Part shown: positions 1 through 22,544 of the stretch, piece after piece
Layout of the letters: each line of letters begins with the position of its first letter
Position numbering within the stretch: the first letter of the stretch is position 1
Origin: Amoebophrya sp. A120
Taxonomy: Eukaryota; Protista; Dinoflagellata
Direction: 5' to 3'
Assembly: GCA_905178155.1 (NCBI GenBank)
Contig: CAJINV010000008.1
Coordinates: 1,922,001 to 1,986,000, forward strand
Length of the DNA stretch: 64,000 nucleotides
The notes under the pieces: model-generated
Told to the model about the DNA's origin: nothing
Seen by the model: only the letters and a program-made list of their open reading frames with translations
The model's database searches: none
Made by a program: the position numbers and the translations under genes

Positions 1-29
1 CCCCGCCCGCACAGATTTGAGCTGTGATA
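1..29. mobile_element. Possible right end of an introner cut by the window edge
   Basis: Ends ...GCTGTGATA like other elements, where the GT25 frame leaves recognisable sequence; partner TIR is outside the window. Confidence 0.35.
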
Positions 30-998
30 CAGGTTCTCGGACAACGCGCCATGGATCTTGCAAATTCCCGTTTTATGGAACCGGATCACGTCCCATCCAG
101 ACTCGACCACCTGAAGGAGGTCCTGAATCACTGACGGCGTAAAGTGGCTGTTCACCTGAGAGAGATTCATTTTTTCGGTATGTCAGTACTTGTGTTGACG
201 AGAGGCATTTGATGGATTTGATTTGAAATTTTACTTCAGTGGCTGCACTTCTGAATGCCTCATTCTGCAACTGAATCTGAAGTTATCTTCGCTATACAGT
301 CCTTTCCTATTCCTATTCCTAGTACGCTTCTTGCATGTTCGCATAATCATTCTTCAACAGTAGGGCGACGGGAATTTCATTTGTACAACATCTTCATCTT
401 GTTCAAAGCGCCTGTTTCCTGCTCATCCTAAATTATCGAAAAGGGGAATTATTCCACCGTACCTTCACGTCATCTTCGAAGATGATCGCCGCCTTCAGAT
501 TGGGGCTGCTCTCGACCGCTTTCTGGTACAAAGCCATGTGGCTTCGCGTGCAACCTAACACGCCACCTTCCGGATCCAGATCTGCAACGTGGTAGTGCAC
601 CTTACAGCCCATGAACTCATCGGCCTTGTCGGGACTTTGCGCGAATTTACCTGAAGATGCCAAAGATAAACCATTTTCGTTCTCATGCATATCGAACCCA
701 AGAAGTGCACACGAGCATACAAGAAAATAATCCCACTTTCTTGCTATCCGTGGATAATTGCTAGGCCACCTACTCGCCAGGCGGATTCAAAATCGACGCC
801 TCGTTGATAACGCAAAAACTTCAAATCATTCATACCGACTTGCTCCCGCCACCCATGTTCGAAAAACGCGCGTCGCTCTGGGCACGTTCGCAAGCTGATC
901 ATACCGATAAACAATTCGGCCGACACATCGCCCTCCGGTCCACCCGAGGTGACGGCCGGGCCGGTGTCTACTTTCTTCTGTGCCATTACCGGTGCCAT
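30..998 (-). CDS. Glycosyltransferase family 25 protein, multi-exon, 3' end runs off the window
   Basis: Three exons carry GT25-type motifs: MISLRTCPERR (ORF 744-998), LGCTRSH...AIIFEDD (ORF 433-690) and, after a CAG acceptor near 149, HFTPSVIQDLLQVVESGWDVIRFH. Exact splice sites not fully resolved. Confidence 0.75.
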
Positions 999-2614
999 GG
1001 TCCACTGATTTTCAAAATCTCAAAAACGACCGATTTCCTTACGGGCTTATTCCAGCGTCCCGTACCTTCAAAAAGTAATACGGGCCGACCATACAGTGAC
1101 CGTAGCCCTGTCAATATCTTACACGACGAGCAGACAAGGGTGACTTTTTGCAAGCCAAGTTGTCTTGTTTCGTGATGGGAAATTGTTGTATCCGATTTTC
1201 TTTTATTCCTCGTCGCGTAAGTACTCAACTTCTACTTGACGACCGCCGTACAGCAGCCCTCACAATTGCCTTTCGCAAGCTCTAGCACCGAGCCACTGCT
1301 ACTGCAGAAGGAGCGAATGCTCTTCTACAGTCAAAAAATAAATCCGCGTCTACTCTTGAAACAGAATAGGCGAGACCTATCAGTAGTGGTTTAGTGTAGC
1401 CGTGCGACAATTAATATCAGGCGCTGTGCCGCTCTCTGATGAAGTATTCAAACTCCTGCTCTCAGAATGATGAAGTTGATGAAGCTAACTATCGCAGGAG
1501 CTTCTTCTCCACTTAGAAGTCCTTCAGCTTTCCACCCGACGGATGAAAATGTGGAACGATGCCAGGTTTTTGAGAATGTTGAAAAAAAAGTAGTTGTAAT
1601 GGAGTCTACTATTCCACGACTAGCAAGAAGCCACCCGGTGCCCCACCAAACAGGAGGGCACCACAGGCTTTTCCTTATCCAGAATAGTGTGAATGCTGAT
1701 GTATGAGGCGATTGATATCAGGTGTATGTTTCCAAAAATCCAAGGGGAAATAGTCATGGGGCTCGCTATTACATCTAAAATGTCCTATACAGGTTTCTTC
1801 AAATATTATGCTTTGGGATTTCTATGAGTTTTATGAGTCAGGTGCTGGTCAGCAGGTAAGGTGCAAATGGTTTTTGCGTGTAGATCCTACTACTCAAAGA
1901 ATCGATGGCCAACTAAAAGTCTACCACAGCTTTAAAAATCTCTCGCCCAAAGAAAAATTCAGATTTCTCTCGCAACCGTAAAAAAGCCATCTCTCTCGGA
2001 CCTTTTACTTTCACTTACACATACAACTGGAGGCAGAGGCAAAAACAAAACAAAGGTGGGTGTCGAAAAAAAAATATAAAAACTCCAGTACTATTGAATC
2101 CGCATTTTACAGGCAGAAAAAAAGTAGATCGCCACGATCATGATTTACTTGCACTATGGACAAGTGTAGCACAAGACAGAAATTACCGAGAAAGCACCGA
2201 ATGCATTTCCTCTTTACCGAAGATGAAAATCCAATTTTTGTCCGACTGCACAGATTTTTCACACCGAGCGGGCATCTCTACAAGAATTGAAATCATCGAG
2301 GGATGCAATCGAACACCGTCACGGACAAATTCAGAAGTGTCGGAAGTCCCTGCGCTCTTTCACCCCCTTGCGAAGCCGAAGGCAACAAGGTGTTCTTGCA
2401 GGTACGTTATTTGGCCTATATATTTTTTTTTTTTCAAACTCAGTTCAGTTTCGTTCTTCTTTTTCTTTGGCTGCTGTATTGAATATTCACTCTTCTAGTA
2501 CTCTGCCTGTAAGAGGTCCATCCTCTCGAATCAAGACAATTTTTTTCTTCATCGCCGAACATTCGTGGTTCTTCGTGTTTCATATTCATCGCAAAATTCA
2601 GTTCTTTCTCAGTT

Positions 2615-5600
2615 TCAGTGCTGTTTCATTTTCGACTCCGTGGTGCTCACAGTTTTCTTCAACAAAAATCCTGGCCGCGAACGCGACGACCCACTTTCTT
2701 CCTGTCCATTCCCCCTCGTCCCAGGGTCGTTCGCCGACCCGCGGTGGTCCCTGCACCTGATAGAAGACGTTGGGAAGTTCATCCCGCTTGTTGGTACTAG
2801 GGCAAAATCTTCGTTTTGCTCAAACGCTGTCAAACCCGTGCGCTCCTGCTGCGGTTTCTCCAGAGCTGCTTCTTTCGTGCGCGAGGACGAGGAGGGAAAA
2901 AATGAGATTAAGTTCTCTGCTTCTTCCGTTTCATCCTCGATGCTACGCATCGCGTCTTGAATAATGTGTTGGACTTTCGACTGCGATTCTCCTCGAGTCT
3001 TCCGACACAACGCGGGTGCGGACTTCCCTTGACCAGTGCTTCGAAGATGCTGCTCATTTAACGACTTTATTCCGAATGGATTATCATTGAAGTTCCCATT
3101 GTTTTCGCGAAGTTGGAGGTGGTGATTCGAATTTGCAACTTCGCCCAAGACATAATTCCCGCAACTGAAGAAGCTGCTCAAGTCCTGGCCTCCTGCGGTG
3201 CTGCTCTCAGCGGTCATCTGTCCGGTCATCTGTCGACAAATCGGTGTCACAGTGCGGCTCACCGCGGGAAGATCGCTAGTACCCTCGTCAATGAGTTTGC
3301 CGCTGACTCTTCTTTGTGTGCTCTCATCGACGCTTGGCTTGCAAGGATAATTTGCGCGAGGTTTGGAACTGTGGTCCTTTTGTTGACGATGCATTTCACC
3401 CCCGGATTTCGCCTCTCGTCGATGTTCTTCCTGACTGCGCAAGGGGGTGGTCCTCAACGTGGAAGATAAAGATTTCAACATACTTCCTTTTTCGTCCATC
3501 CCAAGGGGATCCATCAGCAACATCTTCGGGTCATCCGCCTGCAAAGGATCACTTGAGCAGTCTTTGTCACTGCTCAGGGGGCCGCTGCTCGTGATGCTCC
3601 GGGGAATCGTGGAACTCACCGGAGCAGCGACTGCCTCCGGCGATTGCCAACTCTATGCATTGCGAATATGTGTGGGTCAGGAAGGGTGCAACTTGCGATG
3701 CTACTTACTAGGTGGATGCTAGTACAAAAAAACCTGTATTGCTGAACAGATCGCGCTAGCAATTCAGGATTAGTTTTGGTCCAGTTTTTGCTATGCGGGA
3801 GGGGCGTTCTTCCTCATGCGGTACTACAGGAAACATCAGGAAACCCTCGTCACAGAATCTGTGATGCATCGGGTCAGCTAAAAAAAAAGCGCACGACAAT
3901 AAACATTGCGCTTTTCCAGACCCCGACATCTTTGCACTTGATAAACTCGTTGTCCGAACTACTTCGGGCAAAAGCAAATACCCTTGCTTCATCGGCCAAC
4001 TGCTCGTGCGCACCACCTCGGGCAGAAACTTCGGGCGGGGGCCCTCGCTCGCCCCCGCGCTCTGCTGCTTAAAAACGCCGCCGCTAGTGGCACTGGAACT
4101 GCTCGTTCCCAGCGCCGACGCGGACGCGGTTTTGTGCAGCGGCAAAAAGCTAGTCAGGGTTTCCGCCGTTCGTTGTCGCCCGCCATGCTTTCCGACTTGT
4201 TGTCGGTGGACGGATGGGTCAGGACGTGCAGGAGGGTTGGTGATCGCGGCGAAACCAAAATGGCTAGTACTACTATTCTCGTGAAGATGTGGTCTGGTAG
4301 TCGACGCAGAAGATGAAGCAAACACTCCTACTTGCACGTTCGGATTCACATTTTCCTTATCGACATTGACGTTGGACGTCTTCTCCAGTGAAGGTCTAGG
4401 TCCTGTTGTCCTGCTTTTCACGACGAGATCATATTCCCCAGTGCCGCACTTCTTGCTCAAATTATTCGGAGCAGCTTCCAACGCAGAAAGAAGACACTCT
4501 GATTTATTTTCACCCGCCGCTGGAATATCTTGATTTTCATTTTCACCCGCGTCCTCAGTGCTGGGCGCATTGAATTCGAACTGTTTCCGGTCGTCCCTGG
4601 GAAACGACTGCAGCTGCGGCGGATACGAGAACTGTTTGAGGACTAACTGACCTGCTTTCTCGTTTTCGCCGGTGTCCGCACTGCTTTTCATCCTTACTGA
4701 CGAAAAAACCAAATCGCAATCTTTCTGGTTACTGTGCGCGCTCCTTTGAACCTTATAGTCCTCGCCTTCCTCCGCCGGCACCGAACTGCATGCAGAGCTG
4801 CTACTTGCGTGAGAAGAGGACGAAAACCTCTCTACCTCCGCACCCAGATACTTTTGCTGTGCACTTTGATAAGCCCCCGGCCCGCTCCAGAAGCCTTCTT
4901 CTTCAAAACTGGGACTCCCGGCCCGTCCAGACAGCTGCTTCAGCTGCTCTTCATCGATGGACGTCAGAAGAAATTCCGGTACCGACGCCCTCTCGCTCGT
5001 GTGGCTCTGCGGCTGACCACCTCCTGTAGTTCCTGGAAAGGAACTACAATTACCTCCAGCCGCATGGCGAATCGGACCCCCAGGAGCACACGTCGGGATT
5101 TGGAACGTCTTCCGCCCAACTACGGGATCGAATACGTACCCACTGGTCGTCCCGTCGGCGTTGAAGAACACGGCCTCGTCCCCGCTTTCGGCGAAACTGG
5201 GCGGCTGCACAGGACCAGTCGCACATGATCGTTCTACCGGCGCTGCACCCCTGCGCTTCATTTCCTCAGAGGGCGGACTTCTTCGAGTCCAACTCCTGTG
5301 CGGAAATGAATGCCGATCTGCATTGTCACCGGTTCGAGCGAGATGTCGCCCATCTCGTCCAGGTGTCCCGGGCCTCCTGCCCGCGGCCCAGGTCCCCGCT
5401 ACTAGTCGTGGTGTTCCCGCCCCCGGGTCGACCACAGCAGCGTCAAAGTTTTGCTGCCGACAATGACTGTCCTCGTGCCCACGACTTCTGTGTTTCAGCA
5501 CAGCCTGACTCTTGTTTGGGCTGTCGAACCAAGCGGCGGCCACATGCGCCGCGACATTGCTGGGCACGACGAGAGAAGACGTCGTGCAAACGTTGCCAGG

Positions 5601-8600
5601 ACGTGGTCCTGCGGAAGCACGGGAGACGAGGCCGTGGTGGTCATCGGGATTTGCGTTCTTCGTCTCCGCGCAAGAAATAGTTGCGCCACCATCATCTCTG
5701 AGCTTCTCCATGTTGATGCCCTTCTTTTTCATACCCGACCCACCGGAATTATCCGCATCGCGCTTCGTAATCTTATGCTCCTCCCCCATCTGTATGGGTG
5801 TGTCAGAGTTGAAATCGACAAAGTTGAAATAATTTGTCATGCATAAAATGGATGCCAGTTGGAACCCAGTTTCCAAGTGGCGCATGACAAATTTCGGTGG
5901 TCCCTAAATCCAGTTTGTCACGCTGTTTAGGCAAAGAAGAGCGATTTTCCCATGCTCCTTTAGCAGCTCGAGCTGTAACCCCAAACAGGCTTACAATCGG
6001 CCTCACTTGCCTGCTCTGCAACACACGTACCTCGGGTCATGCATTTTATGCATTACAGATTTTTTCAACTTTGACGATTTCAAACCTGACGCTTCCATAA
6101 TCTGCCGCAAGACCGTATCCATGTTGTACGGCAGCTTCTTCATGTGAAGGCCCTAAAATATCCACCTTTTCGCCCATCTTTTCAAATTTTGCCCAGTTGA
6201 TTGCTCGGCGCCCTCGCCGATTATCGCGTAGCGCCTCTTCGATGGCGGCTGCGCGTCCGCCTTTGCAAACGCGTCAAGCCGGGCTGCCCTATTTCTGCCC
6301 CGAGGCCCGGGGCAGAAACGCAAGCCAAACACCCCAAAGAGAAAAGCCACCCAAACGAGCCTCCCAATCATATGAGGCCATGGACCCTGAGCGCGCCTCT
6401 GCTTGCGCAGGTAAGGAAAGGCACCCGCAATAGCGACAAACGCGGAAAATGCCCCCGGCCAATTTACCCTCGACAAGGCGCAGACGAGCGAAAGGCTGCG
6501 CCTCCCCTCTTATCAGCCCCGGCCTGGCTTGAGCCTGATTCGCAAACAACGCCCGCCACATCTTCTGCGCAGCTTCCCAAACCCCTAGCGGTTCAGGACT
6601 TGGCGCGCACCCAGTAAAACGAGGACAGGCGGCGTAGGCTTGGAAAATTTGAAAAGATACTACTAGCGCATCTTTTCAAATTTCGACAGCCGCGGAAAGG
6701 GTGAGCAGCCTACTCTTCTGCGTGGCTTTCAAAATTCGCAAACTTGCTGAGGGGGCATCTTCGCAATCTTCGGAGCCACAAAAGAAGCAAGCAAACAAAT
6801 GTCGCCAGAGGCACGGCTTTGCTTACCATCTGGCGACCCGCCAGCTGGAGCGCAAGTCAAAGCCTTGGACTTTGAGTGCCCGCCAAGCTGGCTCGCGTGA
6901 GTTGCCCTGATGGACCTCTTCAGGTTCGTTAGCGGTGGGTCCAAAGGCACTCAAGGCCCAGGGCTTCGATCCGAAAAACGCATCGCTGTCTCCATCGGAG
7001 CAGATTGGACGAGATCCAATGTTGAGTAATACATCTAACAAGAACCTCGACAAAAACTGCTCCGATGCGTTTTTTTCTGAAGCGAATCACGATGGAGAAA
7101 AATGCATCGGAGCAAAATGTCGGATACCCCATTCTTGAACCCCCAAGGACTACCCGCAGAGGCTATTTCCCGGGAGGCCGGCACTTGCCCTCATGGTTGC
7201 TCGGATGCAAATCCAAGACCTTTGGCTGGCCGTCAACGCATCGGGGCTCGCCGCACTCAAACGGCGCGTGAGGCTCCAAGCAGAATGAAAGCGCCGCCCC
7301 CAGAAAGAGGGCCGGGCGGAGAATGTCAGAGAGGCACTGGGGCAAAACACACTGAAACCAAGCGTAAGAGAAAAACCGGGGCCAGGGTAAAACACAGCCC
7401 AGCGTGATGCGCTCTAATTCTGGCGCCTAACCGCGAAGGCCAGCAATGCCGGCCACAGCGCTAGACTCAGGCCGGTTGAGGTGTCTTGCGGTCAGCCGTC
7501 CGAGACGCGCCACAAAAAACATTGCAAATTGGCCTGCAACAACCCCTGCAGAAACACCCTCGCACCCGGTCGGGCGACGGCGTGAGTACCATGCCCGCTG
7601 AGAAATTGGCGTCTAAGCACTCGAAGCTACGGACCACCAGGGCCGGGGATTTCTTGAAGCCAAGGTCCCGGAGGTCCGAAAACAACCGCAACATTGAAGT
7701 GCCACCCGTGCGTACTTTCAAGCGCTTCGGGAATCCGAGACACTACCTTTTGCACAGATGCCGACAGGAATGCATTTTTCAGAGGATTAAATCTTATGCT
7801 CCTCCCCCATCTGCCGCAAGACCGTATCCATGTTGTACGGCAGCTTCTTCATGCCCTTGCCCCTTCCGCCCTGTTGGTACCTGATCCATGATGTGATTTG
7901 GGTAGAATTTGCTATGTCGTGGCGCGAACACAAACTTCTTCCCAAATCCCCAAAGCGCTGGCGCCCCTCGACGGCTGCCAGCTTTTTTACTTCGTATGTT
8001 CTCAAAAGGTCACACCCTTCATACTGGTGCTGAACTCCGGCTCTGTATCAGTAAAGGCGTATCTGCGCTGCTTCGCAGCGTCTTGTGTACTACTAGATAC
8101 AGCAGCGAGGCGTGCAGCAGGGACCGCGCCGCGACGTCCGCGCCACAGAGGTGGCTACGGGCGTCGCACTTGTCCGCCCACAGACGTGGGTCGAACCGTG
8201 CTCCAGCACTGCAACGAGAGGTCGCAGCGCCGGGTGCAACAGAAGCTGCAACAAGTCCCGAACCCTCCCCAACAGAGGTCGCTAGCGGGCAGTGGCGGGC
8301 CACTGCGTCGCCGGAGAGAGGGGCCACGAGCCCGCTAAATTATATATATTCGCGTCATAGACGTCAGGATGTGCCTTGCTAGTGTGTGAACATAAAATAA
8401 GATGAGTAACAAGCCGCGCGTGCTTCTCTAGCATGCGCGCGCCATCTTCGCCTCCCTCTCCAGATTGATTGCGCACCGACATCGGCGGGGGCATCGGCTG
8501 CGCGTCTCCTGTGCTCCCCCGGTGTCGTCCATTTTTGTAGGCAAGGGCTGGCCACGGGAGAACAAAAATGGGACCACAGAGGTGGTTAGCCCATTCCGGC

Positions 8601-11600
8601 CCTCACGAGGTTCGCGCTAAGTAATGCTGCGCGACCTAGTCCTACTTGTGATGCCTAGAATGTGATGTCTCGAGTTTGTTGTCTAGATTGGGAATGAATT
8701 AGGTACCTTGTGGGCGGCAGTACCTGCCGCAAGACCGTATCCATGTTGTACGGCAGCTTCTTCATGTATGGGGTCGTCAACATTGTATTTGCCTCCGACC
8801 GTAAAAAAAATTCTGCGCGCATTTTTTCGCGGCGCAAAGCTAGTAAACCTGTGCACGCTAGTGAGGGGCTGACTTGAACGCGGTTTGTTTTACCTAGCTT
8901 GTCAGCAGCAGTGCTCTAGTAGGTAATTGGGTAGTGACGCGAAGGGGGGCGGGGCGCTGGGGGTTCTTCTGTGGCTGATATTTTCACCTAGAAAACGCCG
9001 GCGCGCGCAATATTTTGCTCCGTTTTCCGGATTGCTCTCTCCGTGCAGCTATTTGCCGCTATGGCCTGGGTCAGCGTGTGAGGCTGGAAACGCCCCGCGA
9101 GATGTCTACACCCTCCCTGGCCTCGTCGTCTCTAGCGGGCACCACGCACATATGTTGGCCGCGAAGGCCGTTCCGGAGCCCTTCCAAAAAGGGGCGGCCG
9201 GAGGGGTTCCCGGAACCCGAAAAAAAAGCCTATTCCTTTTTCTTCGAATCACGATGGTGCTACCCCTCCCCAAAAGGGGTCCCGGAACCCCTCTGGGAAC
9301 CCTTCCCGAAAGGCTCTCGGGCTTTTCGCGTTTTAAGTAAAGAGGCGCAAGGGCAAAAAGCGCGCGCGCCTGCCGGTACACGCGCGCACAGCTGCGCGAC
9401 ATTAGAGACAAGGGGAGGCGCAGCCGAGGCCGGTTCCGTTTGCGCCCTCGACTCCGACCGACTTGCACAGATTGAGGCCCATTGTCTAGCGGTTGGACTG
9501 CAAGAGGACCTGCCGCAGCACCTCCAGGCTGCAGGGGCGCTCCGAGGCAAGTCCGTGGAGCAGCAGCGCCGGATAGCTCCGTCTTTAGCCACTGTGAAGC
9601 GCTGCGAATGAGCTAGCTAGTTCATTAGGTGCGCAACATAGTGGGGGGCTATACGTGTGCAACGTGATGGATATCAAATACAAAAAAAGGCGCGCGGAAA
9701 ATTTTTTACAGCTTGAGGCAAATACAAGATCCTCCCCCATCTGCCGCAAGACCGTATCCATGTTGTACGGCAGCTTCTTCATGCCCTTGCCCCTTCTGGT
9801 GGTGCCGTTCTTGCATTTGCTGTTCGTGCTCTTTGTCGTTCCATGCCCGCCTGCGGCAGGGCGATGCGTTGTATCGTGGTTGTTTTTATCGTCGTCCCCA
9901 GCACAACATCTCTCGTCCCCGCTAGTACCCCGCCCCGCAAGACCCTCGCCCCCGCTGCAAGAACCTCCTCCAGCTCCACCAGGAACATCATGGTCGTGAC
10001 CCACCTCTACTAGGCGCTCGTGCTCACTGTCGCTGCCGCTGTCGTCTTGTCCGAAGCCCGGCTGGTCTCGTTCCGCGTAAAATTTTCTGTTCAGCACCCA
10101 GTCCTGCCACATCACCAAATTCGTCAGATCCCCCTGCTTGTCCAAAATGGTGTACTCGCGCAGCACTTTTAAGTCCGTCCGCTCCTCATCGCGGCGCCGG
10201 CGCAGGCGAATCTCCTCCTGCTTCCAGTCGTCTTCGTTCCTGTAGGCGCGAATCTCTCCCTTCAGCCCGAAGCTGCTCTCTCCGAAGTTGCGGAACTTGT
10301 CCTTGCGTGCCACGTAGTTGTGCAGCCGCTGGACGGTTGTACGCTGTGAGTGGAACGCGGCGACAAACTGGCTGTTCTTCTTCTTGTTGTAATCGCCATT
10401 AGCTGCTGTGTGCTGCAGCTCTCCGGCAGGTCGCGGAACAACAGCGACCTCGTCTCCTGTCGCCTTAGTTGTCATCGCGGTAGTCCCAAGCGTTGTCGTC
10501 GTCGTGGCGCGCGCTGGATACAGGAGTCCGGGAGGTGCAGCAAGAACTGCCGCAGCGGGGGCTCCGGCCGCGCTTCCGGGCGCCAAAAACGGCGTCTCCC
10601 CGCGGCGGTTGCGCTGGACCACCATCAGGTCGGCGGTTACGTCGAACTTCAGCTGCCCGTCCTCGATGTCCTGCAGCACGTGCTGGACCAGCTGCTGACC
10701 CTGTTTCCCGGTCATGAAACACTCGTCGCAGAGAGAGGAGCTCTTCAGGTAGTTGTAGCTCTTCTTCTTGTTATTCTTGCCGAGTAACGCGGTCCGCTGG
10801 ATCGGCCGGTCGTCGCAGGGGCTGTAGTGAAACAAGTTGTACTGCGGGGGCTCACCACTCGCGTGCCCGGCGCTCCGTCCGCGCTTCTTGTTTTTCTTCT
10901 CCTCGCGGCCCGCAGCGATACGGGCAATTTCTTGCCGTAACGACACTTCCGCCTTGCCGTACCAGTGCCCGTGCCGAGCCATCACGGTTTGCATGTGGTC
11001 CAGAAAGTCCGCCTGCAAAAAGGTCCGCCCCTCGGAACTCGTGTAGCTCGAGGAAAACAGTTCGCGCGACGAAACCGTCAACTCCTCCTCTCTACTACTG
11101 TCGTACCGACCTGAAGCAACGTCGAACGTTTGCCGGGCCGATACCCGCGGCCGGGCGTTTTTCAAATCGTAGTCCCAGTTCTCAACACGCGTTACCCTGT
11201 ACCTCTTCGCTTGCTTTAATCCACGGCGCGGGGTCTGGTGATCTTGTTCCTGGTTATGTTCTTTCTCAGACGCTGACGAAGACCTGGATGATGATGTTCG
11301 TCCACTACTCGTTCCACTCCGGTAGTGCTGTTCGACTTCCCAACCCTTTTCGCCGGCCCGATGCGTGAGCACAATCTGCTCCCTGCTGATATTTTTTTTC
11401 ACTTTAATATTGCGACCTCCATGAGCTTCGTTCTTCTTTTTCTGACACTGTACACGTTGTTTCTCATGTTTTGACTTCTCGTCATCTTCACCGTCCTGGC
11501 AGCTCTTCAACCCGGCGACACGGCCTTTTGTGAGGGACCGTGGTTGGCAGGAACTTTCTGGAAGATTTTTACGACGGCGAAGTTTTCTTCCCTGAGACTC

Positions 11601-12173
11601 CTCCTTCTTTCGCAACCCTTGCTTCCGCGCCAGCTTCTGTGCCTTCTGTAACGCGGTGCGGTAAAATTGAGTCCGCTGCTTTTTCGAATACAAATTGCTG
11701 TGCAGCTTGTCTCGCGTGAGAAAATCATGGCGGCTGTCCACCTCCGAAGGATGATAATTTTCCTCATGAAGATCATGGTCTTCTTCGTTGTCCTGTTTCA
11801 TGGTCGGACTTTCCGTGTAGTTCTTGCAAAAATTAGTTGCATTTCTGCCCTTCGTCCCAGCGCCCGCGTCGGAAAGAGCATCGGCCTCGGATGAAGTGGA
11901 AGTGCAGTCCCCGGCTTCTTCCTCCAAATACATCCGGGTAAACATGCGGTGCTCCGCTTGCCCAATCATGTCAATGCACGCCTCCAGTGCGTCGTTCAAA
12001 TCGCGCTTGCTCCAAAAGGGATCTTTCCACGCCTCGCCGAACGCGTTGCTCAGCGGCGCGAGCCGCACTTGCTTGTCGTACTTGCCATTTGTCCACCAGG
12101 ACCGCCCCACGCATCGCTTTTCCTCCTCGACGATAACTTGTGCGTCTATCGACTGCAAGAACTGCTTATCCAC
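2615..12173 (-). CDS. Large low-complexity hypothetical protein (~1770 aa); true start uncertain
   Basis: ORFs 9585-12173, 3756-5885 and 2615-3619 join in frame (12173-9744 + 5792-3944 + 3648-2615 = 5313 nt) once elements 3654-3943, 5793-6099 and block 6145-9729 are removed. Junctions read ...MKKLPYNMDTVLRQMGEEHKITKRD... and ...PEVVRTTSWQSPEAVAAPVSSTIP... Confidence 0.7.
3654..3943. mobile_element. Introner, GTCTGGGTCTGGAA family (degenerate), 290 bp
   Basis: TATGCATTGCGAATATGTGTGGGTCAGGAA...TTCCAGACCCCGACATCTTTGCACTTGATA; direct repeat AACTC at 3649-3653 and 3944-3948; removal restores frame. Confidence 0.9.
5793..6099. mobile_element. Introner with ~65-bp TIR, 307 bp
   Basis: TATGGGTGTGTCAGAGTTGAAATCGACAAAGTTGAAA...TTTCAACTTTGACGATTTCAAACCTGACGCTTCCATA; direct repeat ATCTG at 5788-5792 and 6100-6104. 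Confidence 0.92.
6145..7789. mobile_element. Long spacer between exon copies A and B; degenerate foldback-like element
   Basis: Only weak end-to-end inverted similarity; internal inverted repeats ATCTTTTCAAATTTT (~6176) / AAAATTTGAAAAGAT (~6644) and TGCTCCGATGCGTTTTT / AAAAATGCATCGGAGCA (~7058-7115); no credible ORF. Confidence 0.45.
7867..8722. mobile_element. Spacer between exon copies B and C; element with one complete TA end
   Basis: CCGCCCTGTTGGTACCTGATCCAT pairs imperfectly with ATGAATTAGGTACCTTGTGGGCGG; right end ...GCAGTA is intact, left end merges into the exon copy. Confidence 0.6.
8767..9729. mobile_element. Spacer between exon copies C and D; foldback element with one complete TAT end
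   Basis: TTGTATTTGCCTCCGACCGTAAAAAAAATTCTGCGCGC (~8783-8820) pairs with GCGCGCGGAAAATTTTTTACAGCTTGAGGCAAATACAA (~9690-9727); a second imperfect inverted pair at ~9160-9330 is centred on the element; starts TATGGGG. Confidence 0.7.
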
Positions 12174-12477
12174 TGCACAAATCGGTATGGGTCTGTAATG
12201 CTAGTCGCAACATACAAAATGAGAAGTAACAGCATCTCTTCACGAGTTTTATTTTCAAGAAACACGATACGTTTTACTTTTAGTAAACATCAATAATGCG
12301 TGGTCAAGTAGCATGTCATGAGAAGTGGCGCTCGTGCGTGACAATTGACCGGGTTGTAGTTCCGTCGATCTGCTTCGAGCATCGCTGAGGTCGACTCTAT
12401 CCAAAAAAAGAAAAACAATGCGCACACATAAATAGACCCGCATTCTTGTTCCAGGCCCAGATCGATAGTTGCAATGC

Positions 12478-15400
12478 TTACTGCTCGACGACCCGCTTCG
12501 TGTGGCTCGCGGCCGAAAAGGCCTCGCTCGGGGTACCCTGCTGGTTGTAAGGTTCCCTCTGCAGATCGAATGCATGGAACGTCGGCAGACCTGATTGTTG
12601 AAATGGCGGATGAACCCCTATCTGTGCAGCTGGCACGTGTAGCTGTTGTGACCACGTTCCCACCGATCCCGCAGGATGAGGCGAAAACGGCAGCGGTAGC
12701 AGGTGGTATTGCTGCTGCAGATGGAGCCCTTGATGTTGTAGGTGCGGCCCGGAAAGAATTGTACCGGAACAAGCGTTCTGCGGATAAGTTTGCAGGCCCG
12801 CTGCGGCAGCAGAAACGAACTCCAGCTGGCCGCTGGTGTGAGAAGTAGATGTCGCACAATTCACTGGCTGAGCTAGCTGTTGTTCCAGAGCAGGTCGTGC
12901 ACCAGAAGTAGTTTCTTTACTGCCTGCATGTGCATCTCCTGTCCCAGCCGTGCCAGCTCCGGTTATACTTGCAGAAGGCTCCTGCGCCACTAAAGTTTTA
13001 TCCACAACAACGGCGGCCGGTCTGAGTCCCCTGAAGCCTCCTGTGTCTGGCGGCGAAAGAAGGCCTGGCGCATTGGAATTTGACATGACACGGTGCAGCA
13101 TGGGCTGGAAGGGAAGTTGTTCTACCAGTGACGGGTTAATCGACGAGGTCTTTCGCACCCCCCCGGCGCGGTCAGTGGATTCTTGCTGGTTCTTCCCGAT
13201 CAGTCCGACGTAGTTTTTGTTGCCACTACTAGGTGGATCATTGGCCAATGCATCCTCTTCTCCAATCTGTCGCCGGTTTGCGTTCGCGGCCGGGGTGATT
13301 CGCGTCTCGCTGTTACCCCTCCGCAGTGAAAAAACCTTCGGGCGATTCGGCAGGAAAAAGCCGGACGCGTTCTTCTTTATTTCCGACTTCGCACCGACCG
13401 AACTATCCGGTCTGGCGCCTTGCGGCGCTCCTTCATTTGGTTCCTCACTCACAACTCTGTTCTTACGAGCAGGGCTGCTTGTTTTCGCCACTCTTTCAGC
13501 TACTTGCATCAGCAAGCGCTTCGTTTCGCTTATGGTCCCACTTCTGGTTACACCTTTCGACTGCTCGGGATCATCTTCAGAGCGGCCAAGAACATTTTCA
13601 TGATTTACTATTTTGTGTTGATGATCACTCGCAAGAACCCCGTGTTCTTTTGTCTCTTGCTTGCTCCTCGCCGCAGCAGTCTTCTCGCCGACAACGCCGC
13701 CTCCCCAGTTGGTCCACTTTTTTCCCTTTGCCTCTGTGTGGTCCTCGCAAGTAGCATTCCCCCCGCTGTCCTTTCCTCCTGGTCGCGCCTGCGCCTCCTG
13801 CCGGACCTCTCGTCCTGTTTTTAGTGTAGTGGTCCCAGCCGCGGATGTTCCAACGGAGAGGTTCTTTGCAAGAACTTCGAGCCCGAGCTCTGCGCGCGAA
13901 AAGAGGGACTCGCCGAAGATGACATTTTTCTCGAGCTCCGTGGCCGCCGCGTCCAGTTCGACCTGTGTGAGGTCCCGTTTCTGAAAGTCCTTCTGCAGCA
14001 GGACCGCCGCGTCTCCCGAGCAGAGCACGCGCCCCGGGGGACAGATTTCCACGAGCTTCTTCGTCTTGCGCATCTCCTTGCCCCACAAGTGGTAGTCCAT
14101 GCGGAACTTGCTGCGAATCAGGCCCCCCGCGAAGGGCCCGCTGTGAACGGCGATCTTCACATTCATCGGGTTCACCACCGAATCTACCCACTCGATTTCT
14201 TCGTCTGCTTTTCTCGCTGTAGCGGCTGCCTCAGCCTCGTCCGGCCGCGGCGCTTCTTCTGCGTCATTCCCGTCCTGGTCCTGTGCTGGAAGGTGGCTCC
14301 ATGGTGGGGGTGGGACGGGTGCGTGGAACGGGCTCACCGCCGAAGTAGACTCGTCCAGTGCAATGTTTTTTGTGAACAAGTGAGATCCAGCACCACCTCC
14401 TGGCGCACAGGCGAACACTGCGCTCGTAGCTGGCCCATACTGATGCAGCTGCTGGTGCTGCTGCGTGGTCCCCGGGTGGTTGGCAAAGAAGAGCCCAGAC
14501 TTGTGGTGGGGGTGCGCTGTCGCGTGTTGCATGTGCACCGCAGCACCTCCTGTTCTCATCAAGGTATTTGGATTGGCGTTGCCGAGCCGCGCTATACTGT
14601 CCCGTGCGGTTTTTTGCTTTACCACCCAAGTGCTCAAACCGGTCAAATTCGACAGCCCCATGGCGCGCTCGCTTGCGCGTGCTTGCAACTTCGTGCGGCG
14701 AGAGTCCAGCAACTGCTGCTGTCTGGCGCTGAACAGACTTTCCCGAGGACCACCTCCCGCTGGTGCTCCTCCTCCCGGTATAATACTGCTGCACTGGGGG
14801 GGCCAGGACATTTCCACGACCGGAGGGTGCTGGAGCACGTTGCCGCTTGCCTGCGCGACGGGAAGCGACTCTTCTTTGATGTGCCTTGCATCCCACCCAA
14901 AGGCGGGATGGATCGTGTTGCCGCATGCAAGCGCGGAGACAGTACTTCGATGCCGATGCAGAGTTTGCAGATGCGGCGCGGCGGCCATGGGCGGAGTGTA
15001 GATTTGCGTCATTGCTTCCCCGGAGGGTGCAAATGCACCCGTCACCCCCGTTGTGCCCAACTGGCCCGGAACGGGCACACGACTGGTGGACCGGTCCTGT
15101 CGAAACACATAACTTTGTGGCCTTCGTCCGGAGTGGGCGAGATCCGAAAAAGCATTGAGAGAAGGCACGGATTCGTTTTTAATGTTACTCGCATGCTCCT
15201 GCCCGCCGCCGCTACAAACTTGCGAGGCTAACGCAGCGCTCACCATGGGCTGGCCGGAGAGACGACTCGCCGAAGACACTAGGTCGGTGCCGCTACTTTC
15301 CAGCATCACCGGGCCGGGTGTATTTGCGCCTTTACCGGCAGACACCAATGAATCTGTTGGCACAAATTTTTTGGCCAGCGATTGCTGCGGAGGGAGATGC

Positions 15401-18400
15401 GCAGCTCCCGGTACTCGGGCCTCTTGGTCTGCACCTAGAAGAGGCGGCGCTCCTACGCAGCCTTGATATGGGAACTTCCCCGAGTCGTCCCGTTGCGCGT
15501 TAAAATCACCCTGCCGCCCCGGCTGCGAGTTCATTGTCGATAGCACGGGCCAAGTAATGGCGGCGGCATCATGATACGGTGGAGTAGTCAGGGTCTGGAT
15601 TGCGTCCGAAGATGAGGCTACTGCCCCTGATACAGCGACCGCACTGTTTTTGTTTGCAACGACTCCTGGGCCGCGGTGGTGGAATACATTAGAAATAGAA
15701 CAAGTCGCGGAGGTAATACTGTTGTTGATACCGCGCATTGTGTGATGTTGCTCGTAGAAAACCGGGTGCCCTGCTGCGGCCCCTCCAGCAAAACCGCCGG
15801 GGGTGGTGTTCAGAGTGCTGGCCGGCCCTCCCATCGGGGCTGCAAGGTGGCCACTTGTTCCGAGGTTTCCCATAGCTCGCCGATCCAATGTTTCTGTGCT
15901 GAACAGCGGGTCCGTGTCGCGCAAATGGTCGATTCGCTTCCGCGCATCCACCGCGAACCGCGCAATTGCCTGCGCGTGGTGGTCGTCTTCGTCGGGGATG
16001 CCCGCGGCCGCGATGTAGTAGACGCCGCTCGTCTGCACCCGGTCGATACCGTGTGTCTCGGTAATCAGGTCGAGCAACGAGAACACTTTGTCCAGGGCCT
16101 GCACGGCCTCTCGCGGCTGTTCCTGCTGCCACTTGTCACAGATGCAAACCTGCACCACGCAAACAGACACGCAGCGGTACTGCCGTGCGCGGGTGAATTG
16201 CCGCTCGTTGTCGAGCAACGCTGGGTTTTTCAACACATAGCGGTTCTGCTTTATACTCTCGTGCAGGTCCAGTCCGTGGGTGCTACTCACACTGGATGAG
16301 GTCGTCGAGGCGGATGATGTGCTCCTCGCACTCCCTCTTCTCCTCCGACGACTGGCACTCCCAGCACCACGTTGACCCCGCTGATCAGACTCTACATCTG
16401 ATGTTGAAAATGTTCTTGATCCACCACTACCAGTAGCGGAACTACGCGCGCAAATCGGGGAGGAGCTGCTGGAAGACGTCGAAAGCTCGTTGTCTTTTCC
16501 CTTTCGGAATAGCTTATCCAAGAAGCCGGCGCAGGACTTCGACTTCCTCCCGTCACGCCGCGGATGACGTGATAAGTGTTGTTCTCGATGATGTAGTTGA
16601 CCACGACCTCTTTCCTTTCGCCCACTTCTCGGCATCCTTTCCTGTCTTCTGCGGTTCTTCTGCCGCTCTAGCCTACTCCTTCTTCTACATGTTGGTGTCT
16701 TCATAGTACCCTCCAGTGTGCACGAGCTAGTACATGTCTGGTCTGCACCAGCATCGTCCCCGTCTTCGCTTCCGTAGAGGCTGGTGTCCCCGTCGACATC
16801 ACGATCGTCGTCCCAAGGGCGTGACAATCCATCATCGCTCCCGGAAGAGGGGCTTCTGCTAGTCGAGTCGCGAAAGAACAAGTTCCGACGAGGACTTTCG
16901 TTGCGAGGAGGGCGAGCATCCCCAATGTTCACCACGTGATCTTCATTCTGCTGGAGGTCTCTCGTCCCCGCGCGACTTGCGCTACGACCGGAATGTTGAC
17001 TCGTTGTTCCGTCGCAACTTCGGGAATTATTGCGGAGAAGTCGTCTCTCATCCGGGGAGGGAGACAAAAAGCCAAACGAATCTGGCACCTCAATCACGTT
17101 TTTGATGTTGTCAGGAGTGTATTTATCATCACGATCTTCCTTTCGCGATCTTTGTTCGTCGACACTGCTACCACACGAACTAAGACTTCGCCCCACCCTT
17201 CGGGAGATAATCATGCCACCTCGAACCGGGTCCGGCCGACAAACGTATTCGCTGCGCAGCGACACCATCTCGATCGCGCCTGACGAAGAACCCGTGTCGC
17301 CACGGGGCGTGGTACGTGGGGCCGCCGGGCGTGGCGTGTTGTAAGAACGGGAGGAATTGTAGTCATTTTCTTCATCTCTCCGTCCACCCGCCCCGAAGTA
17401 GAGATTACAACTAGCCCGCGTCTTTTCTTGCTCGCGGACAAGGCGCCGGTCCTGCTCCCTTGTTCTCAGAAAAGCCTCCATTCGCTTCTGGTCTTCAAAG
17501 ATCTGCGTGCTGCATCCCCCGGGCAGGCAAGCCCGGATCTCCCGCCGGTAGTGCTCGATTTCTCGTTGCAGCCGCAGTCTCGCGGCCTGGGAGTATCTCG
17601 GATCGAGGCCGCGATCAGATGAAAATTCGTTTCTTATTTCCTGATGCGGAGTTGTTGGAAGTAGATCGTCGGAGTCGTCGTCTGTTGAAAAGTCAAGTTT
17701 GCGCTTGTTCCCAGTTGTAGCTCTTGCGAAACCAGCACAGTTCGAGGACCTTTCGGTGTTGTACTGACGCGCACGAGCAGTGGGTCGTCGGCAACGCGGG
17801 CGAGGGGAAAAGAAATAAAGGTCGTCGGGGTGCGATCTTCTCCTGCTGCAGAAGGTGTTGGCGTGCAACAAGGACGAGAATGTGTCAGAATTTCCATCCT
17901 CGCTCCGCCCGACATCTTCAAGAACAACTTCTCGATACAATAAATCATCTTCCTCTACATAAGGGCGAATCAGGACCCGATCGCGCTTCTGTTCCAGTGC
18001 GCCGCCAAAATAAAAATGGCTTTTATGTAGCTTCTGTGGGTCCACCTCGCGATTGGAACAATCATAATTGCCGGATGATGTGCTATGCGCGGTCAGACCT
18101 CCGAGCCCGGCTTCTTCCTCCATCACCACCTCCTTGTAGATCTCGTCGGCCATGGCCTTCGGCACCAAGTTCTGAATGATTTGATCGCCAATCTCCCGCT
18201 CCTGCTGCAGCTGGTGCGAATTCAAAAAATCCTTCCGCAACAGGATTTCCCGGGAGTAGACGAAGAGGAGGAGCAGCGACATGATGACGAAAAAGAGCAA
18301 GAAGTCGATGATGGGCAAAAACACCCAGAACAGGGGTTTGTCCAGCGGAAAGATGAACGCCCCCGATTGCCGCGGGTACCCGAACAAGGTGATCAGTTCC

Positions 18401-21400
18401 TTCTCCATCACCTCCCGGTCGTTCATCGCGATGAAGGGGAGCAGGCTCTCGCTAATCACTGCCCAGCTCTTGGCCGAGTGGTAGTAGCACAGGTAGTATC
18501 AACCGTAAAAGTGTCTGGGTCTGGAAGAATTCATGTTTGTCATGCTTGTCTGGCATGACTCTCAAATCTGTCATGCACGTTACCCAAGAGCTCCGCTTTT
18601 CTGTGATGCAGAAGCGCAGTTTGTCATGCAGAATAGGCAACACCTAGGAGCTCAGAAACTTGTCATGCTAAGCCAGCACCTGTAGCCTCATCTTGAGACG
18701 CCACCCAGCCTCACAAGTTTCCAGACCCAGACATTTTTACTTTTGATAGGTAGAGGCAGGAGTACCCCGGGATGACATCAAATGTAAAAGCGTCTGGGTC
18801 TGGAAGAATGCAAGTCTGTGTCTGTCATGCTTGTCTGGCATGACTCGAGAATTTGTGTTGCATAGGCACGAAAAAGCCCTCTGGCCTGTCATGCAAAAAC
18901 GCAGTTTGCCATGCGGAATACGTAAGACATGGCAACCGAAAAATTTGTCATGCACAGCTGCGTACTCCAGTGCGTCTATCATTCACTTTTAGCATCACAA
19001 GTTTCCAGACCCAGACATTTTTGCAATCCATAGATGAACACGAGAAACAAGAAATACACAAACCGCAAGCGGAAGACGAACAGCGCCAGCATGTAGAAAA
19101 TGATCAGGTTCCAGGTCGTCTGCAGCGGGAGCCGCACGCTGTTCGGGGTGTGGTCCCACTCGTCCTCCTCGCTCGTGTTCTCCGCGACAATGTTCAGATT
19201 GGTGGAGATCCCCGTGTGATCAACTGCAAGGCGATGTCTGGCTTTGGACGAAAGTTGTCATGCTTCTAACGCATGGATGATGAGCAGAGAGCACAATGGT
19301 AGACGGGCCGAGTCGTGCGAGAACAAATTCTTATTCGAAAGCTCTGTGTATTCGGTATTATTCCGCATGAGAAGTCAGAGTCACATTTTTTTTGCAAAAC
19401 ATAATAAAAGCCGCTTTTATTATGTTTTGCAAAAAACGAAAAATAGCGATGCTGCTTCACGCAAGTTGCATCCCAAACTCTACAGGAGCCATGTGGTCAG
19501 CGTCAGAGGACAAGTACTTAATACAAGTGTAGTTACCGCGAGAATCTTCGTCCAGACCCAGAGATTATGTTTGCAGTGCATACGTGCGGGCCTCCCACTC
19601 GTCCCTCTTTCGGTGGTAGTTTGGCAGGTAACAGGGCAAAACAAAAACGATAACCCAATTCAGATAGCAGTGATCCAGTATCAACTGTAAAAATGTCTGC
19701 GTCTGGAAACTTGTGATGCTGTGTGGCGTATCATGAGGAGACGACAATTGCTGGCTCAGCATGACAAGTTTCTGAGCATCTAGGTGTTGCCTATTCTGCA
19801 TGACAAACTACGTTTCTGCATGACAGAAAAGTGGGGCTCTTTGGTAATGTGCATGACAGATTTAAGAGTCATGCCAGACAAGCATGACAAACTTGCATTC
19901 TTCCAGACCCAGACATTTTTACATTTGATATCCAGGAGGCAGAGAAGCGACCCCAGCAGTTGGTAGTGCTGCAGGAAAAACTCCCGACACCCGAGCAGCA
20001 ACAGAAACCACTGCAGCATGTAGACGGGCGCGAGCCAGTTGATCGCGGAACAGATGAAGCCGTGCTCCAAGCACTGGAAAAAGGAGAACAGCAGTAAGAC
20101 GCCGCCGATGCAGCACTGGAAATCCTCCGTGATCCCCTTGTTGCGGTGCATGTAGTCGAAGCAGAACGACTCTTCCATGATATCGTCCTTTTGCGACAGA
20201 AAGCCGCCGGTCGGGGCCCCCACCCCAGCCATCTGGTGCTCCATCCACCCTTGCAGCGTCATGGGATCCTTCTGCACGGGCACGCCGCACTCCTTTCCCT
20301 TGCCCCGCTTCAGTTTCTTCGTGCGCTTCCGACGCCTCCGCTTTTTTTTCTTCTGACCCGCTGGCGGTTCTTGCTGGTGCTGCTGCAAAACACCACCTTG
20401 TTGCGCGTTCATTGCGGACGTCGCGCTTGCAGTTGCGGTTGCGGATTCGGTTGCCCTGCCGGGGGCGGCATTTGTTCTGTTCTTCGCTGATTGATGGTGG
20501 TTGGCCATGTGGTCGTCCCTGTTGTGACGCAGAGTCGGGCTCCTGATCGGGTGTGTCGGCGTTGCAGTTACACCGGTGGTCGTATCATGGTGCGCAGGGG
20601 ACCGCGATTGGTCGCGCGGCTGCTCTCGCACGATCGTTCCGTTCACAATCTTGCAGGACGGTTGTGGTGCGCAAGACCGGGGCTGGATTTTTTCGCTCGC
20701 ACAGGGGTCCACCTCTTCCTCTTCCTCGTCGGTTACCCACTCAGAGTACTCTTCACTCGAAGAACTCGAGTTGTCCACTGCGGCGGCCGCGGCACTGCGG
20801 CCGCCCAGTGCCAGAGAACTTTTCCGTCCACTTTTTCGGTGTTTCTTTTGTAGCTTCTTCAATTTCTCTTCCGTAATTTCGCCAGGCTTCTCCCAGGCGT
20901 TTCGCGGGCTCCGGGGCTTGCTGTCTGTTTTCACCTTCTCCTCGTCCGTCGTCGATTCGAGCTCCTCCAGTTCTTTCAGCCGAAGCTGCGCTAGCTCCTG
21001 ATCTTTGCGAGCGTTCGCGAACTCCAGGCTCACAAAATGCATCGGGCGTCCGTACTTCTGCCACAGCGCGCGCCGTCGTGTGCGTTGCGCCAGCGATTCG
21101 TGCCCGTATCGGTCTTCTGCTTGAAGATGGCTGCCATGTCCTCGCGTTATTCCGCCTGAGCGGAAGTAGTCTGCCCAACACGAACCTGTTGACCCATAAT
21201 CTGCAGAATCCGCTCCTACCTTGTTTTTATTCCTTCTATGAGGAGGACAACGTACCCAAGAGGCAACTCACCCATGGGGGATCAAAAAAAAAGTTTCAAT
21301 TAGTGCCGGACTGGCCGGCAAAATACCTATATAAAATAGTTAATTGCAATAGCTAGGTGATTAAGTAGTTAGATAAGACGTTTTTTAGGGGTTGTAGGGT

Positions 21401-22544
21401 GCTAGATCGCCAAGTCCAGCTCCACGGATTCGCCTCGGAACCCTAGCAAAAAACCGAGGAAGCGCCCCATGGTGTGGCGTCTGTCTACTGCCCGCGCTTT
21501 CCATTGTGCGTGGCCTGTGGGAGATTTGGCGCAGCTAGCCGCATCCAGCGGATGGCTGACGACAAGCCGGCACGGTAGACACAAAAAGCCGCGCGCCCTG
21601 GTTATGAGAGAAGGCGGAGCAGCGTGCCATCGGCTGCCGAGGGGGGTTTCGCCAAAAAGCACCCGCAAGCCAAGTGCAACATGGCCCGCAGGCCGCGGCC
21701 TGCAGGGCCGCAGGCGAGAGGCGGGGGCGCGAGGGGGGGCCGCGGGAGGGGGTCCACACAGGGCCTCCCATAGGGCATATTTTTACCCCTAGCCCCGACG
21801 CTGTGGTCGTTTTGTCCCTTGCCAAAAAGGGGGCATCTCGGAGGGGCATCGCGGACGGGGATCCCGGACTCTCGTGTTGTCCTTTGTGAGGTCAATCTGC
21901 CCAGGTAGGAACACAACGAAGCCGGGGCACTTTGGGTAGCCTCACAAAATGGCTCCCAAGCTCGGCGGAAAGTGGCAGCAAGGCACAAACAAAACACAGA
22001 AAACGGCGGCAAGGTGCGACACGGCCGTCGCAACTACGTCGTCCTGCTGCCTTGCCACAGAAGGCTGGCCGCCGATCCTCTGCCCCCTGCGAACCTTCGT
22101 GCCCTATCTGCGCCAGGCCCTCGTGTGCAGTATCCCGGCGCCCCTGCGTGGAGACAACCGAGGCGAAGCCGTGGAGCTGGATATCGGCGATCTAGCACCC
22201 TACAACCCTTTGAAAGCGTCTACTTTACATAGCTAATTCACATAAGGCAAGCTAGTGTATTTTAACTAGCGAAATTACTTATGTTCAATTCGTTTACTGT
22301 GAAAAAAAAAAAAATTATCCCCTTGGGTGCGTTGCCTGTTGGGCACGTTGTCCTCCTCATACCTTCCTTCGCCTGTGTATAATGTCTCCACAGGTTCGCG
22401 AAAGATATTTCTGTTCCTCTCACCTTCTTGCTCTATGCCGTATCCACGAAAACAGGCACGGAAAAAACTCCTCAGACAGTTAAAAACTGGCATCCGGCTG
22501 CATGTTCCACCTCCCTGCGAATTGGGCCGCCGCTTCTCCGCCAT
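12478..22544 (-). CDS. Membrane class III adenylyl/guanylyl cyclase-like protein, catalytically degenerate (~2596 aa)
   Basis: Removing five elements gives a 7791-nt frame from MAEKRRP (start inferred): transmembrane block (…FVFRLRFVYFLFLVFIPGY…), helix QEREIGDQIIQNLVPKAMADEI, and cyclase halves VSVCVVQVC…AVQALDKVFSLLD…HGIDRVQTSGVYYIAAAG and MNVKIAVHSGP…YHLWG…PGRVLCS. Confidence 0.8.
18497..18748. mobile_element. Introner, GTCTGGGTCTGGAA family, 252 bp
   Basis: TATCAACCGTAAAAGTGTCTGGGTCTGGAA...TTCCAGACCCAGACATTTTTACTTTTGATA; direct repeat GGTAG at 18492-18496 and 18749-18753; join reads YSCLYLCYYHS. Confidence 0.95.
18776..19032. mobile_element. Introner, GTCTGGGTCTGGAA family, 257 bp
   Basis: CATCAAATGTAAAAGCGTCTGGGTCTGGAA...TTCCAGACCCAGACATTTTTGCAATCCATA; direct repeat GATGA; join reads FLVFIPGY. 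Confidence 0.95.
19218..19582. mobile_element. Introner (degenerate, 365 bp) with an internal perfect hairpin
   Basis: GATCAACTGCAAGGCGATGTCTGGCTTTGGACGAA...TTCGTCCAGACCCAGAGATTATGTTTGCAGTGCATA; flanks CGTGT/CGTGC; join reads WEARTGISTN. Confidence 0.85.
19388..19436. repeat. Perfect inverted repeat, 24-bp arms, 1-nt loop
   Basis: TTTTTTGCAAAACATAATAAAAGC-C-GCTTTTATTATGTTTTGCAAAAAA. Confidence 0.95.
19679..19930. mobile_element. Introner, 252 bp, inverted sibling of 18497-18748
   Basis: TATCAACTGTAAAAATGTCTGCGTCTGGAA...TTCCAGACCCAGACATTTTTACATTTGATA; direct repeat TCCAG; join reads LLCLLDHCYLN. Confidence 0.95.
21237..22361. mobile_element. Long introner (1125 bp) with two-tier inverted repeats
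   Basis: ~44-bp TIR TATGAGGAGGACAACGTACCCAAGAGGCAAC.../...GTTGCCTGTTGGGCACGTTGTCCTCCTCATA; second inverted pair 21376-21438 / 22158-22221; direct repeat CCTTC; join reads TGEGRNKNKVG. Confidence 0.93.

Follow-up and report, generated by a model that had tools for sequence, protein, structure and literature searches.

A fourfold exon segment in Amoebophrya sp. A120: possible stacked, lopsided insertions of repeat elements alongside an ordinary introner

The exons of the dinoflagellate Amoebophrya sp. A120 are interrupted by introners, which are repeated, non-coding inserts with hairpin ends that are removed without fixed splice dinucleotides. In their published account they have 3–5-nt direct repeats and inverted repeats starting with TAT, the introns kept are 40–1000 bp long, and splice sites are chosen without a detected U1 snRNA (PMC7789003). 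Here we describe a block in an A120 gene where a 77-bp exon segment is present, in whole or in part, four times (copies A–D) between positions 5769 and 9796 of the window, by which we mean the whole 64,000-nt stretch analysed (contig CAJINV010000008.1, 1,922,001 to 1,986,000). The copies are separated by three spacers (S1–S3), and copy A is split by a further insert, I0 (Table 1). The inserts resemble A120 introners in being repeated and non-coding, and probably in being removed from an exon without fixed splice dinucleotides; hairpin ends are clear for I0 and S3, which share the inverted repeat starting with TAT. I0 is an ordinary A120 introner: it has the inverted repeat and a direct repeat in the 3–5-nt range, it is repeated, with a very high summed depth of its family in the DNA runs, and it is spliced. 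S1–S3 appear to work like introners, yet their flanking direct repeats are 54–64 bp long as against the published 3–5 nt. A single clipped end and a stack four deep over 4 kb are features of the present locus.

Several known processes share parts of this picture. In aberrant retroviral integration, one end is normal and the other, often truncated, primes on nearby DNA by short homology, sometimes using several templates, before rejoining with a host duplication (PMC5041404); one-ended integration has also been seen for Sleeping Beauty (PMC5801840). The locus has the same normal and truncated ends (S2 and S3) and host duplication, and possibly the short homology and the foreign sequence, but whereas the retroviral events were induced by drugs or mutations, those proposed here are natural, apparently occurred three times in one exon and left it spliceable. 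Cycles of templated insertions likewise insert copied sequence and re-replicate a host segment, but they are somatic cancer events (PMC7025897), whereas two of the three inserts here appear to be near-complete terminal inverted repeat (TIR) elements. When introns are gained by tandem duplication or break repair, the duplicated exon piece gives the splice positions, and imprecise gain may add codons (PMC3443670). Here too an exon piece is duplicated, but foreign repeats part the copies and most joins are non-canonical. IS1549-type elements have duplications of more than 50 bp at the flanks of the insert. The same likeness holds for the long interspersed nuclear elements (LINEs) Dualen and R9 (PMC9977147), but both kinds of element copy contiguous target and cannot give the order seen here. 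Neither coding capacity nor LINE features were found in the spacers, and none of the 14 open reading frames (ORFs) overlapping them had a Pfam match. By analogy, the origin of the block would resemble one-ended integration and templated-insertion cycles more than long LINE duplications, and its outcome would resemble imprecise intron gain by duplication. What is new would be the natural stacking of lopsided insertions, as a variant of known processes; it would not be the undescribed insertion or repair mode that the original prediction thought possible, because this class of mechanism has already been described (PMC5041404). A literature search, made mostly without subscription papers, found no description of stacked long duplications in Amoebophrya-type introners.

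In our judgement the chances are about even that the block arose through the lopsided insertion of three non-autonomous repeat elements and the entry of one ordinary introner, a route that would need no cDNA. The layout and coordinates first proposed stand, save that S2 is 857 rather than 856 bp long. Successive copies overlap by 64, 56 and 54 bp, and all of them, copy A included (the first reading had compared only B, C and D), are 100% identical across these overlaps. S1 and S3 both begin directly after position 64. The window has no further match to B longer than 14 nt and, short-period tandem runs aside, no other exact direct repeat longer than 28 nt. As had been argued, the overlaps are far from an ordinary 5-bp target-site duplication; such ordinary 5-bp repeats flank 13 TA-ended elements of the window, including I0 and one of 1125 bp, as against 0–1 in shuffled sequences (n = 5). 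The latter element (21237–22361) has near-perfect arms and serves as a size-matched control for S1–S3.

Table 1. The host reading frame and the parts of the repeated exon block, in window coordinates. Copy B (7790–7866) defines positions 1–77, and all other copies are numbered against it.
Feature	Coordinates	Strand	Description
Host reading frame	2615..18495	-	At least 3771 codons after in silico removal of the block and two other introners
Copy A1	5769..5792	-	Positions 1–24; continuous with downstream exon; exact match to B
I0	5793..6099	.	Ordinary introner with TA ends and a 5-bp direct repeat (positions 20–24); arms of 62 nt, 84% complementary
Copy A2	6100..6144	-	Positions 20–64; exact match to B
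S1	6145..7789	.	1645-bp multi-copy repeat; terminal inverted repeat not convincing
Copy B	7790..7866	-	Positions 1–77; sole unbroken copy
S2	7867..8723	.	Multi-copy element of 857 bp; intact right end; left end fused to B, with about 5 nt lost
Copy C	8724..8766	-	Positions 22–64; candidate 39-nt extra mini-exon
S3	8767..9729	.	Multi-copy TIR element of 963 bp; intact left end (TATGG); about 15 nt missing from the right end
Copy D	9730..9796	-	Positions 11–77; continuous with upstream exon

The presence of several copies in the DNA is supported by read depth in runs X1 and X2, which are one sample and possibly the assembly's own source, so that depth tests copy number rather than independence. 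In X1 the flanks have depths of 42.1 and 42.7, whereas a 106-nt contig running from the end of S1 across the whole of B has a depth of 77.6. From the 31-mer multiplicities of the window we predicted depths of 78.7 for four copies, 70–71 for the best three-copy sets and 42.4 for one copy, with no other set tried exceeding 63. Four copies thus fit best, and three, judged from this one contig, are less likely. Past position 77 the two exits have the depth of a single copy, with 46 for the contig over the B–S2 junction. The run from the flank through A1 into I0 forms one DNA contig at single-copy depth, and another such contig begins within D, at 9767.

The spacers belong to repeat families, since contigs covering all three have depths of 149–499, or 3.5–12 times the single-copy depth; they are thus not the unique sequence that had been named as a refuting case. 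Their description as foldback elements holds for S3, whose arms (45 nt, 82% complementary) have a score reached by none of 200 shuffles. It is weak for S2 (27 nt, 74%), whose score is reached by 17 of 200 shuffles although its duplex energy is reached by none of 200, and it is doubtful for S1, where 6 of 200 shuffles reach the score and 2 of 200 the duplex energy.

The original prediction also gave two spacers one intact TA end and one end fused to the exon, and comparison with other family copies (one contig each) bears this out for S2 and S3, with one correction. The intact right end of S2 is better read as GTAC, which provides a GT donor for the gene strand, because position 21 would be mismatched if the end were TA; this end adjoins position 22 exactly, without a short repeat. 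On its left, another family copy has a matching end with about 5 bases that are missing here, as judged from one contig's loose end, and the next 6 bases of that end equal exon positions 72–77, the last 6 bases of B; the X1 contigs have a corresponding loose end before 7861. For S3, another family copy begins at the identical left base with a different flank, and on the right a copy carries about 15 terminal bases absent here (again one contig's loose end), the loose ends falling at 8767 and 9728 in X3 contigs. Exon bases 11–21 of D replace the lost right end of S3 and pair with the intact end, so that the stem has an energy of -44.4 kcal/mol with these bases and -32.2 without them. Short homology at the fused junction amounts to 6 nt for S2 and 1 nt for S1, with none clear for S3.

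The final 32 bp of S1 and the next base (7758–7790) recur at another locus: an X7 contig of depth 68.5 carries them with unrelated sequence on both sides, and they also occur in X1 with the same right flank; this other locus is not within the window. The end of S1 suggests captured exon sequence of another gene, as expected if repair had copied a second template. S1 may also be composite: a 14–15-nt motif occurs in direct and inverted copies at 6176–6683, and family contigs in X1 and X2 have 23 other letters in place of 6193–6646. Separately, X1 and X2 each have a contig at single-copy depth in which the right end of an S2-family member (8719) is followed by the left end of an I0-family member (5793), probably from another locus where both families adjoin. 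An Rfam match at 28.5 bits was rejected against a cut-off of 70.

Simulating strict target-site duplication, we could reach only two of the six spacer orders, and the observed one, given the assembled order, was not among them, in agreement with the original claim that neither insertion order works. All six orders become reachable once any of the copies on the same chromosome can serve as template for the missing stretch. The shortfall is just 11 bases (positions 11–21), and copy B, 1.9 kb away, has them. Some templating or recombination is required, as had been proposed, but an mRNA or cDNA template is not needed because B holds positions 1–77 on the same chromosome. One end of each element would have joined cleanly, S2 at position 22 and S3 and probably S1 at position 64. 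The free end, having been clipped, would have primed on a nearby exon copy, and 54–64 bp would have been re-copied before rejoining. S2 may have come first, with S3 then landing in the third copy and taking positions 11–21 from B, the likely repair template; I0 would have entered copy A after S1. With a spare copy present, further hits within the block would be tolerated, and templates for them would lie close by.

The transcripts bear on the outcome of these events. Runs X3, X4, X6 and X7 come from one sample and are likely RNA, a status that we infer and that is not on record; the depth ratio of the I0 family to the exon is about 5 in X3 as against about 3100–3300 in X1 and X2. X3 also carries pieces of S1 with 0–1 differences from the copy here. 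All three of these runs that were compared with B (X4, X6 and X7) have the core joined to downstream exon A1 without I0, and contigs of the likely RNA runs lack the entire 4-kb block; splicing probably removes it from the mRNA with the frame preserved. Neither this I0-less form nor the seamless form expected of the suggested pointer-type DNA removal, as in ciliates, occurs among the X1 DNA contigs compared with B, in which rare forms are dropped, and the pointer proposal finds no support. That these runs are RNA is also supported by the contigs of X4 and X6, which stop 3059 nt beyond A1, near a T-run after the stop if the introner at 3654 is spliced but within the reading frame if it is not. 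Upstream, X6 and X7 both stop at about 9931, 135 nt from D (X4 at 85 nt), in a stretch that is G-rich on the gene strand; this being one sample, a coverage drop and a transcript start are not separable.

A 58-nt contig in X4 (depth 15.9; upstream entry 18.9) returns from position 59 to position 21. None of its 28 31-mers is present in the window; the join adds 39 nt and is consistent with a second, in-frame KKLPYNMDTVLRQ unit (13 residues) in the mRNA. The one-unit and two-unit forms both leave one long frame open. This candidate mini-exon, together with the in-frame removal of the block, supports the suggestion of a route to repeated exons. The other refuting case named, a plain four-unit mRNA produced by GT-AG introns, is not what is found: seamless joins between copies have GT-AG ends only where they start from C. 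In the route that we favor, a D-to-C join adds 39 nt and a 2934-nt GT-AG intron links C with A1, so that two units result; a direct D-to-A1 join would give one. This route is preferred because its D-to-C join coincides with the base of the S3 hairpin stem and its C-to-A1 intron would be seamless.

The locus shows how introner insertion could lead to exon duplication, and it separates two candidate cues for splice-site choice by setting four identical exon copies against four different hairpins. More tentatively, and on balance doubtfully, A120 introners might have a recurring lopsided insertion mode that copies 40–65 bp of exon, where the copied bases take the place of the element's lost end, close the hairpin, keep it spliceable and spawn an in-frame optional mini-exon, with splice sites set by hairpin geometry and not by GT-AG. 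If true, this would amount to a transposon-driven birth of tandem peptide repeats.

Several points weigh against the history proposed above. First, this is a single locus, whose copy order is as assembled and whose mRNA unit number may be one, two or both. Second, the template rule is loose: with all six orders reachable it shows a possibility and not a history. Three rare events within 77 bp, two of them at one base, are explained only in part, the fused junction of S3 has no clear microhomology, and the ends of S1 are not proven to be element ends. Third, the copies differ at 0 of 179 sites as against 27 of 1262 between the spacers and their family contigs (P ~ 0.02), and this higher likeness hints at later conversion or selection. 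Finally, of three runs from a single sample only one has the 39-nt join, which could stem from any of six copy pairs, all of them lacking GT-AG ends, so that joins are not assignable to one pair; the assembler may also have simplified the one-unit contigs of X6 and X7, since X1 shows that such contigs run through repeated nodes.

Unequal crossover offers another origin, which we consider unlikely though worth serious attention. One chromosome would have carried S1 and S2 and another, or a rearranged sister, S3, each with its long duplication, the two being joined within the shared 43 bp. As reasoned from the coordinates, both parents can be built by strict duplication and a single crossover in positions 22–64 gives the exact order; the perfect identity of the copies would also be accounted for. 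Nevertheless, the origin of the long duplications would still have to be explained, and two alleles, neither of which was seen, would have to meet over just 43 bp of homology.

Deletion next to an element has a slimmer chance: C would have begun at or before position 11, and the intact end of S2 would later have removed at least 11 neighboring bases. This fits the exact abutment of that end on position 22 without a short repeat. Adjacent deletions at one end are general transposon behavior. Such a deletion would, however, require an extra event and a transposase, and would leave the clipped ends unexplained; putative transposases are reported only in A25 (PMC7789003).

Slightly less probable again is that four real copies were mis-ordered in assembly, the true order being either of the two open to strict long duplication. 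Depth is identical for every copy order, no contig spans the block, and at least four of the nine junctions were seen as contigs. Against this, each copy is phased by less than 80 bp, and the window, if it belongs to the published A120 assembly, was built from paired Illumina reads and checked for chimeras with Nanopore data (PMC7789003).

It is quite improbable that the copies were templated from spliced mRNA or cDNA, as first suggested. I0 is absent from B, C and D, and retro-type introners exist in A120 (PMC12130899), but such a template is unnecessary if I0 came last, and recombination with cDNA would be expected to remove introns rather than to add exon copies at element ends. That separate alleles with one spacer each were concatenated, although the layout is what loop-walking in an assembly graph yields, can be rejected as scarcely credible because of the depth of 77.6 where 42.4 is expected for one copy, and the exits after position 77 are at single-copy depth.

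The host gene codes for an adenylate/guanylate cyclase domain (Guanylate_cyc, E = 1.2e-15) upstream of the block and may extend further upstream. Here the public gene model falls short, as public protein P0003 is a 1232-aa partial piece that ends at 9963. Over 92% of the query, the upstream frame is 100% identical to a protein that bears the name Amoebophrya sp. A120. Protein searches returned the A120 protein alone for P0001 and no match for P0002, and hence no orthologue. A protein search of metagenome contigs gave one locus, L001 1-4729 (JACKZZ010018515.1), which ends at window position 4732, short of the block; the S3 end motif was not found in metagenome contigs. JACKZZ010018515.1 is 99.85% identical to window positions 1–4732, including the introner at 3654, and its assembly may carry the block on another contig.

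Elsewhere in the window, a similarity at 36.0–37.9 kb was rejected as a second case of the block, as it represents two related introners. Two further related introners lie 25 bp apart at 18497–19025, the second of which begins with CA and not TA. Between 2615 and 53837 every ORF longer than 470 codons is on the minus strand, like the unidirectional gene clusters reported for Amoebophrya.

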